DNA of 63,853 nt, counting the filler, from Reclinomonas americana ATCC 50394 (taxonomy: Eukaryota), in NCBI GenBank assembly GCA_048213135.1. It is 10 parts of 6 records of this genome, joined end to end, with 100 filler letters (N's around TTAATTAATTAA, not from the genome) between each part and the next. Parts side by side here need not be neighbours in the genome. Positions count along the whole stretch, not along the records: positions 18,351 to 23,972 come from PS015751.1; 9 more parts are not named here. One strand, written 5' to 3'. The translations under genes were made by a program, and so were the position numbers. The notes below the pieces were generated by a model, which saw only the letters and a program-made list of their open reading frames with translations, was not told the DNA's origin and made no database searches. The stretch's first letter is position 1. Each line of letters begins with the position of its first letter. Below are positions 21,464-22,653 of this stretch, piece after piece.

Positions 21464-21874
21464 ATGGAGCAGTACGGATTGATCGACCCTTCTGTTGCGT
21501 TTTCGCTGTGTGTGCGTGTCTGGCGCATGTGTGCGTGTGCGTGTTGCTCATAAGAAGTCTTCTTTGCTACAATGTATGCTGCGCAGATTGGAAACCAACA
21601 GTTCGTCGCACTCTCACCAATGCGCGCCTTTCGCAGTCTTCTGCAGCTCACTCACCATCGCACGCACACAGTTACTATGTGACCCCGACCTACTTGGCTC
21701 AGGGAGAGTACGCGGCCAACACTGGCAACGTGTTTGGTGTGTGTGCCATCTACTGATTGCGCATTGTGATCACCTCACACGCTGACCGCTTCGTTGCTGC
21801 CTGTGCTTCCTCCAGATCTGCAGATGCTCCAGGGTGCGTCGAAGCTCCATGTTGGGCTCATCGATGGCGTGTGA
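21464..21874 (+). CDS. 55-aa microprotein, copy A (4 exons: 21464-21493, 21587-21600, 21672-21736, 21816-21874)
   Basis: Spliced: MEQYGLIDPSIGNQHYYVTPTYLAQGEYAANTGNVFDLQMLQGASKLHVGLIDGV*. All introns GT-AG; same intron positions and phases as the adjacent paralog. Confidence 0.8.
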
Positions 21875-22262
21875 CCAGTGAGTCGGATCCGGAAGTGGTG
21901 TGTGCACTCGCGCGCTGCGATCGCTGCGAGTGATCTTGAAGAGCCAGTGAAGCATCATGCGCATCACGGCCACCTCTCTGTCCTCATCGTGCTTGCCTTT
22001 GTGATGGCAGAGACCGCATGCACAGCTTGGTGAGAGCGAACGCTGTTTACGAGTGCGCGAGTCGAGTCACGTACGCGTTCGCGATTTATTGCATGGTGGG
22101 CGGACGTCCAGTTAACTCCCGACTCACACGCCTTTCGAGCCAACAGTGATATAGCTGCGCAGGGGAACAGGGATGCGACATGAGAGGGAGATGAAGACGT
22201 CCCGCATTCATCATGACCATGGCCATCGGGACGAATTCTCACACACAAATTCTCGCAGCGCG

Positions 22263-22653
22263 ATGAACCCGGAGCAGTACGGCCTCATCGATCCCTCTGT
22301 TGCGTCGTCGCTGTGTGTGTTCGCATGTGCGTCTTGCTCACAAGAAGTGTTCTTTTGCTACACTGTATGCTGCGCGCGCAGATTGGGAGCCAGCAGTTTC
22401 GCACTCTCACCAATGCGCCTTTCGCAGTCTCTCTTTCTCACACACACACACAAACGCACAGCTATTATGTGTCTCAGCAGTACTTGGCTGTGGGAGATTA
22501 CGCGGCCCAGGCAGGCAACGTTATCGGTGCGCGTGTGCCATGAGTGATCATGATTGTGTGACTCTCGTCTGACGCGCGCGATGCACCACCTCCGCAGAGC
22601 TGACGATTGCGCAGGGTCTTTCGCAGCTTTCTGTCGGGATGACTCACATCTAG
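22263..22653 (+). CDS. 56-aa microprotein, copy B (4 exons: 22263-22298, 22382-22395, 22462-22526, 22598-22653)
   Basis: Spliced: MNPEQYGLIDPSIGSQHYYVSQQYLAVGDYAAQAGNVIELTIAQGLSQLSVGMTHI*. Aligns end to end with copy A, with clustered synonymous differences in exon 1. Confidence 0.8.

Follow-up and report, generated by a model that had tools for sequence, protein, structure and literature searches.

Microproteins encoded by small open reading frames (smORFs or sORFs) are found in animals, plants, and yeast, and most of the described cases are single-exon open reading frames (ORFs). Very short exons, on the other hand, are characteristic of the micro-exon genes (MEGs) of schistosomes, which are built mostly from many symmetric microexons and whose secreted products carry signal peptides. 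For vertebrates, the sections considered here of one report (bioRxiv 10.1101/2024.09.17.613571) place the control of microexons mainly in the flanking introns. In this study, we analysed a 63,853-nucleotide (nt) stretch of DNA from Reclinomonas americana ATCC 50394 (assembly GCA_048213135.1; hereafter the window, along which all positions are counted), and found two loci, A and B, which we interpret, with a probability of roughly 0.7, as two separate tandem paralogous protein-coding genes on the + strand, each with four exons and a soluble product of ~6 kDa. Like smORF microproteins, the predicted products have fewer than 100 amino acids (aa), contain no recognisable domain, and were missed by standard annotation, but here a coding sequence of ~165 nt is split over four exons.

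The two genes lie head to tail, with their ATG codons at 21464 (A) and 22263 (B) and a spacing of ~800 bp. Gene A is modelled with exons of 30, 14, 65, and 59 nt (55 codons plus TGA), and gene B with exons of 36, 14, 65, and 56 nt (56 codons plus TAG). All six introns run from GT to AG, measure 93, 71, and 79 nt in A and 83, 66, and 71 nt in B, and interrupt the two genes at homologous positions in phases 0, 2, and 1. An earlier note on this DNA had described such a pair of genes for 55- and 56-aa proteins, with matching intron positions and phases and with a 14-nt microexon in each, and all of these elements were found. No third copy was detected in the window by tblastn or blastn. The parts of the two models are as follows.

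21464-21493, + strand: gene A exon 1, ATG plus 9 codons; 9 of 9 shared residues are the same in B despite 5 nt differences (P = 0.00015)
21494-21586, + strand: gene A intron 1, 93 nt, phase 0, donor GTTGCGT, branch-like motif TTGCTCAT; the 3' part, 21537-21586, is strongly conserved
21587-21600, + strand: gene A exon 2 (microexon), 14 nt; differs from B at 3 positions, and 2 of these changes are synonymous in the model frame
21601-21671, + strand: gene A intron 2, 71 nt, phase 2, donor GTTCGTC; hardly any change between the copies in its 5' part, 21601-21639
21672-21736, + strand: gene A exon 3, 65 nt; 13 of 21 residues as in B, with no indel
21737-21815, + strand: gene A intron 3, 79 nt, phase 1, donor GTGTGTG; unalignable to B past the donor region
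21816-21874, + strand: gene A exon 4, ending in the TGA stop
22263-22298, + strand: gene B exon 1, ATG plus 11 codons
22299-22381, + strand: gene B intron 1, 83 nt, phase 0, donor GTTGCGT, branch-like motif TTGCTCAC
22382-22395, + strand: gene B exon 2 (microexon), 14 nt
22396-22461, + strand: gene B intron 2, 66 nt, phase 2, donor GTTTCGC
22462-22526, + strand: gene B exon 3, 65 nt
22527-22597, + strand: gene B intron 3, 71 nt, phase 1, donor GTGCGCG
22598-22653, + strand: gene B exon 4, ending in the TAG stop

An open spliced frame alone is weak proof of coding, GT and AG dinucleotides being plentiful, and the frame was tested by substitutions, codon usage, and insertions or deletions (indels), all three independent of the way in which the frame had been found. 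Over exons 1-3, the ratio of nonsynonymous to synonymous divergence (dN/dS) between A and B is 0.19 (dN 0.19, dS 0.97; Nei-Gojobori), and the 26 nucleotide differences fall on codon positions 1, 2, and 3 in the proportion 7/4/15. Twenty-six of the 35 encoded residues are identical, compared with 18.2 ± 1.85 when an equal number of substitutions is placed at random, and this identity was reached in none of 20000 simulated trials; the shifted frames of exons 1-3 give just 16 and 18 identical residues. The shared codons of exon 1 (EQYGLIDPS) had been said to differ only synonymously, and all 5 nucleotide differences among them are indeed synonymous. Taken exon by exon, exon 1 has a P of 0.00015, exon 3 of 0.049, and the exon-4 core of 0.086, and in every one of the four exons the model frame is stop-free and the best or tied best of the six. 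The alignment proposed for the C-termini, QGASKLHVG in A and QGLSQLSVG in B, was also borne out. No indel separates A from B within the exons, compared with seven gap events within the introns (P = 0.025, uniform placement).

Codon usage points to the same frame. With four long ORFs of a fibrocystin-like gene elsewhere in the window as the training set, the log-odds score of the model frame is +17.6 bits for A and +14.4 bits for B, compared with -13 to -43 bits for the other five frames, and these scores rank in the top 1.3% (A) and 1.8% (B) among 16974 random 165-nt pieces from positions 1-39000. When the loci are scored piece by piece, all exons are positive, with the largest share (11.7 bits) coming from exon 3 of gene A, and all intron and flank pieces are about zero or lower. 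Coding on the minus strand was rejected, as no minus frame beats the model frame in the exons (minus frame 0 of exon 2 ties, with 3/4) and some minus frames contain stops.

Conservation is not confined to the exons. Over ungapped columns, A and B are 47% identical upstream, 77% in exon 1, 88% in intron 1 (with three gap events), 79% in exon 2, and 82% in intron 2; in the 3' half, the values are 72% in exon 3, 39% in intron 3, 54% in exon 4, and 53% downstream. Introns 1 and 2 together differ at 21 of 144 aligned columns, a lower share than among third codon positions, where 15 of 35 differ (Fisher P = 0.0006). Their conservation is concentrated in the ~50 nt before and the ~40 nt after the microexon, and intron 2 contains blocks of 20 and 16 nt that are 100% identical. 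This feature is absent from the earlier note, and it changes the view of what is under selection here. As the two units cannot be aligned in their neutral parts (upstream DNA, intron 3, and 3' flanks) and dS is close to 1, the duplication is old, and the intron blocks flanking the microexon are therefore under selection. Recent gene conversion was rejected as a source of the intron identity, since within this tract the microexon and the third codon positions have diverged further than the introns have.

It could be argued that such a pattern belongs to a duplicated non-coding RNA gene or to regulatory DNA, for example an intron-hosted or free-standing small RNA, of which the spliced frame would be a by-product; its best-conserved part would stretch from the end of intron 1 through intron 2. 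Introns 1 and 2 outdo the exons (72-79%) in conservation, the first 36 aligned columns of intron 2 carry no substitution, and the 24 conserved GT and 16 conserved AG sites permit many open spliced frames. Nevertheless, we consider this account improbable, as it leaves unexplained the synonymous-only changes of exon 1, the excess of third-position differences, and a codon-usage signal limited to one frame. Furthermore, Rfam gave no match at gathering thresholds over the whole window, and within 20500-23500 the lone match at an expectation value (E) of 10 or less was sR10, with 14.1 bits against a gathering score of 45. The folding energy of the introns and the microexon region is the same as that of shuffled sequences (z from -1.38 to +0.41). 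A consensus stem around the microexon has 13 pairs and 0 covariation and is hence uninformative; with neither an energy signal nor covariation, a structured RNA around the microexon was rejected.

For the two protein-coding genes, the most economical reading of the intron blocks is that they may serve as recognition or control signals for the 14-nt exon. Exon 2 is well below the 27 nt that bounds microexons, and its flanking introns are conserved above neutral; its length, however, is not the multiple of three expected of regulated microexons, for which both isoforms stay in frame. Skipping it would shift the frame, giving a product of 31 aa in A and, in B, at least 88 open codons in a frame that is not homologous, so inclusion of the microexon would be needed for the conserved protein. 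As a separate observation, intron 2 of gene B (22396-22461), with its 66 nt, is a multiple of three and stop-free, and its retention would give an in-frame product of 78 aa; unlike in B, retention of the 71-nt intron 2 of gene A would shift the frame.

The splice signals can be compared with those of the organism's own introns. In the fibrocystin-like gene, the homology-supported introns at 42898 and 53266 start with GTTGCG, contain CTCAC, and end in CAG, and two more introns start with GTGTGT and GTGAGA. GTTGCG followed by a branch-like motif and YAG occurs at 20 of 29 sites on the + strand versus 6 of 24 on the - strand. Among the candidate introns that join coding-like open segments between 38 and 61.5 kb, 8 of 15 loci have a GTTGCG donor, the others including GTGCGT, GTTCGT, and GTGAGT, and the candidate lengths are 58-103 nt; the GTTGCG pattern is seen on the + strand across 38000-61500, for example at 42898, 47700, 53266, 56375, and 60205. 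In this organism, GTTGCG(T) appears to be the most frequent motif at the 5' splice site, in place of GTAAGT or GTRAGT, together with a CTCAC branch-like motif and introns of ~58-103 nt. A literature search for GTTGCG splice donors returned only unrelated papers. The introns of genes A and B, with lengths of 66-93 nt, GTTGCGT, GTTCGT, and GTGTGT donors, CTCAC or CTCAT branch motifs, and CAG acceptors, fit these local introns.

Outside the coding parts, each gene is accompanied by three short conserved elements.

21325-21342, + strand: gene A upstream block 1, 139 nt 5' of the ATG, 15 of 18 positions identical to 22124-22141; candidate promoter element
21423-21434, + strand: gene A upstream block 2, GGACGAnTTCTC; candidate core promoter or start-site element
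21935-21951, + strand: gene A 3'-flank 17-mer, 61 nt past the stop, 17 of 17 positions identical to the B copy; candidate 3'-untranslated-region or 3'-end element
22124-22141, + strand: gene B upstream block 1, 139 nt 5' of the ATG, as in A
22229-22240, + strand: gene B upstream block 2, GGACGAnTTCTC
22707-22723, + strand: gene B 3'-flank 17-mer, 54 nt past the stop

Upstream block 1 sits within otherwise unalignable upstream DNA. Block 2 is found about 35-40 nt before each ATG, and its two copies (at 21423 and 22229) are the only exact matches in the window; since they are read in different frames, this block is not coding. A sequence shared by the two 3' flanks had been reported before, and it corresponds to the 17-mer CTTGAAGAGCCAGTGAA, which has just two sites in the window, 21935 and 22707, also when 3 mismatches are allowed. 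A role as a generic signal was rejected for both the 17-mer and block 2, as neither recurs exactly elsewhere in the window. A shared minus-strand reading frame through the 17-mer was also rejected, because its frames, as read from the ORF translations, differ between A and B. In addition, a 31-nt inverted repeat lies upstream of A (20936-20966 and 21246-21276; 84% complementary, 279 nt apart), and a decayed copy of its right arm is found near 22044-22065. As this copy sits at the matching place upstream of B, the duplicated unit can be taken to measure ~800 bp.

These flanking elements also bear on whether the segments are exons of one longer gene, either of a transcript running through both units or of a neighbouring gene. 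Gene A has one GT at its stop (21871) and another just past it (21878, GTGAGT), gene B has CGCAG just before its ATG, a Trefoil/EGF gene follows downstream on the same strand, and an assembly gap (19953-20454) lies upstream of A, ~1 kb away. However, both units have an in-frame ATG where conservation starts and an in-frame stop where it ends, and both have the equally spaced upstream blocks and the same 17-mer past the stop. An intron joining the units would have ~390 nt, compared with 58-103 nt for the local candidates. A search of proteins of 71-2000 aa, in a collection of 5.8 billion, with the exon-3 region yielded 92 scored candidates, none with E <= 10, which is weak evidence. A longer gene therefore seems to us very improbable.

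The two predicted proteins are both of ~6.0 kDa, with an isoelectric point of 4.3-4.4, and they are rich in Tyr, Gly, and Gln, with five Tyr each. Basic residues are nearly missing: A contains one Lys and no Arg, and B contains neither. Consistent with the previous claim that Cys, a signal peptide, and a transmembrane segment are all lacking, neither protein contains Cys, and the highest mean Kyte-Doolittle value over 19 residues is 0.63 in A and 0.91 in B, which leaves neither with a transmembrane or signal-like segment. The conserved parts are the N-terminal EQYGLIDPSIG and the Tyr-rich core encoded by exon 3. The N-terminal Y-x-x-I after Glu presumably resembles short Atg8-interaction or sorting motifs.

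To assess the unrecognised small-protein family inferred in the earlier note, homologues were sought with exon 3 only (21 residues, alone or with contiguous in-frame read-through), a query of little power. Within that limit, Pfam returned 0 families for the 21-residue query, 1.84 billion protein representatives gave 0 matches at E <= 0.001, and no protein of 21-70 aa in the collection of 5.8 billion shares three 5-residue words with exon 3, so the spliced products are not among the predicted proteins of that collection. A metagenome scan with peptide patterns matched 92 stretches, of which 0 were confirmed by tblastn, and a degenerate DNA pattern of exon 1 had 0 matches across metagenome contigs. 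A full-text literature search for the motif YGLIDPS found no paper.

In our preferred interpretation, each gene would be transcribed from its own short promoter region bearing the two conserved upstream blocks, its four exons, including the 14-nt exon 2, would be spliced, and the messenger would be translated into a soluble acidic protein of ~6 kDa. The duplication is old, with synonymous sites, upstream DNA, intron 3, and 3' flanks at or near saturation. The likeness that remains between A and B is therefore kept by selection, which acts on the protein over its N-terminal two thirds and, in the DNA, on the intron sequence flanking the microexon, the two upstream blocks, and the 3' 17-mer. The conserved intron flanks may let the spliceosome find, and possibly regulate, an exon too short to carry its own signals. 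As for function, the proteins would most likely act as a small cytosolic binding partner or complex subunit through EQYGLIDPSIG and the Tyr-rich exon-3 core.

Several observations weigh against this interpretation. Exon 3 taken alone has 13 of 21 identical residues in the model frame, versus 10-12 in the other five, and exon 4 has a dN/dS of 0.93, with differences at codon positions 1, 2, and 3 of 6/4/7 and thus no third-position excess. The donor of intron 2 in gene B, GTTTCG(C), is without a counterpart among the local intron candidates. Gene A has a stop upstream of its start, at 21389, whereas gene B has two further in-frame ATGs upstream, at 22173 and 22191, and its start is for that reason less certain than that of A. 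When all combinations of the conserved GT and AG sites that keep the frame open in both copies were enumerated (1008 models), the four-exon model ranked 20-34, depending on the measure, and hence its exact boundaries are not unique; close competitors have an exon 1 longer by 18 nt (donor at 21512), another donor or acceptor for intron 3, or an unspliced intron 3. The purifying selection proposed in the earlier note is supported for exons 1-3, as judged from their dN/dS of 0.19, the 7/4/15 distribution, and the simulation. Exon 4 shows no constraint at the protein level, although it forms an island of conservation whose start coincides with the predicted acceptor: the top local alignment of A and B in this region (21813-21856) begins at the acceptor CAG, and its score was reached by 2 of 500 shuffles.

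The enumeration makes it necessary to consider the same two coding genes with another exon structure, namely with the 21512 donor, with shifted intron-3 sites, with three exons and a read-through into intron 3 (42 and 43 aa), or with a long first intron at 21529-21671 in place of the microexon and its two introns. Variants with the 21512 or the 21743 donor reach total BLOSUM scores of 191 and 188, compared with 165 for the four-exon model, and models with the 21529-21671 intron reach a total codon log-odds of 39.5, compared with 32.0. The absence of protein-level constraint in exon 4 also suits such structures, as does the stop that retention of intron 3 would bring after 6 (A) or 5 (B) more codons. 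On the other hand, GTTGCGT is the commonest local donor and is the same in both copies, exon 4 conservation starts precisely at its acceptor, and an intron of 143 nt exceeds the local candidate range, its aligned donor in B (GTTCGCA) being different. Furthermore, the top 8 models by BLOSUM per residue all include the microexon and exon 3, and they vary at the 3' end and in the donor that follows exon 1 (21494 or 21512). On balance, we regard a different exon structure as unlikely, with exon 4 the weakest part of the model.

The two genes had also been called invisible to ORF calling, which is only half true. ATG-initiated ORFs of 122 aa (21388-21756, A) and 124 aa (22173-22547, B) overlap the loci. 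An unspliced reading was rejected, since these ORFs run in different frames over the shared sequence, with a patchy 25-bit match, and are not homologous; the five frame-shifting indels within introns 1 and 2 also disfavour it. In Pfam, neither ORF gave anything under E = 0.18.

Other features of the window were recorded alongside. Downstream of gene B, an open frame at 22814-23590, with an ATG near 23168, encodes a secreted protein of Trefoil/EGF type. Part of its Trefoil-domain segment is duplicated (22951-23048 and 23255-23343, ~300 nt apart, 84-93% identity), the upstream copy having a 6-nt insertion. The fibrocystin-like gene that served for codon usage is very large, at about 41900-60200 on the + strand, with TIG, G8, and CEMIP beta-helix domains, and its best relatives in the protein collection, like those of a 692-aa neighbouring ORF, share just 33-39% identity across half of the query or more. 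Positions 26019-27029 hold a DUF5054 ORF. The window contains 4178 N letters in all, in joiners and larger N runs. Nine identical N44-TTAATTAATTAA-N44 blocks, mostly beside microsatellites, look like six-frame-stop joiners rather than biology; they lie at 1769-1868, 3336-3435, 6795-6894, 18251-18350, 23973-24072, 35304-35403, 43811-43910, 49704-49803, and 62581-62680.

In summary, A and B are apparently orphan genes of a known kind, with added interest in the constrained intron sequence around a frame-setting microexon. If this is correct, sequence alone suffices to find tiny multi-exon genes in protist genomes with poor annotation, a tandem paralogue providing the comparison, and the loci would offer a compact test case (<600 bp per gene), with candidate elements marked, for the recognition of a 14-nt exon outside animals. 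Because the only Lys or Arg residue in the pair is a Lys of protein A, trypsin-based proteomics would miss both proteins, and their absence from such data would mean little. A bolder view, which we put forward tentatively and think doubtful, is that A and B represent an old, lineage-restricted family of acidic, Lys/Arg-poor microproteins, in which the 14-nt frame-setting microexon is either a regulated on/off switch or an exon so hard to recognise that dedicated intronic elements are needed; the host would be a unicellular-type eukaryote without the animal microexon machinery.

Compared with known systems, the two genes share with schistosome MEGs small proteins, very short exons, and duplicated families, but they have one asymmetric 14-nt microexon among exons of 30-65 nt and no hydrophobic N-terminus. 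An over-conserved intron in a gene for a small protein is also described, in the part of the report considered here, for ribosomal protein S13 (PMC2095825), the product of which controls its own splicing. The A and B proteins, by their acidic composition with hardly any Lys or Arg, are unlikely to bind RNA directly. A parallel in intron conservation exists with the regulated microexons of animals (bioRxiv 10.1101/2024.09.17.613571; PMC8797185), which, as far as the sections of these two reports considered here go, share with exon 2 a very short length and the over-conservation of both flanking introns. The animal microexons described there are mostly frame-preserving, neuron-specific, and SRRM3/4-dependent, whereas the microexon of genes A and B has 14 nt, breaks the frame if skipped, and belongs to a unicellular-type genome.

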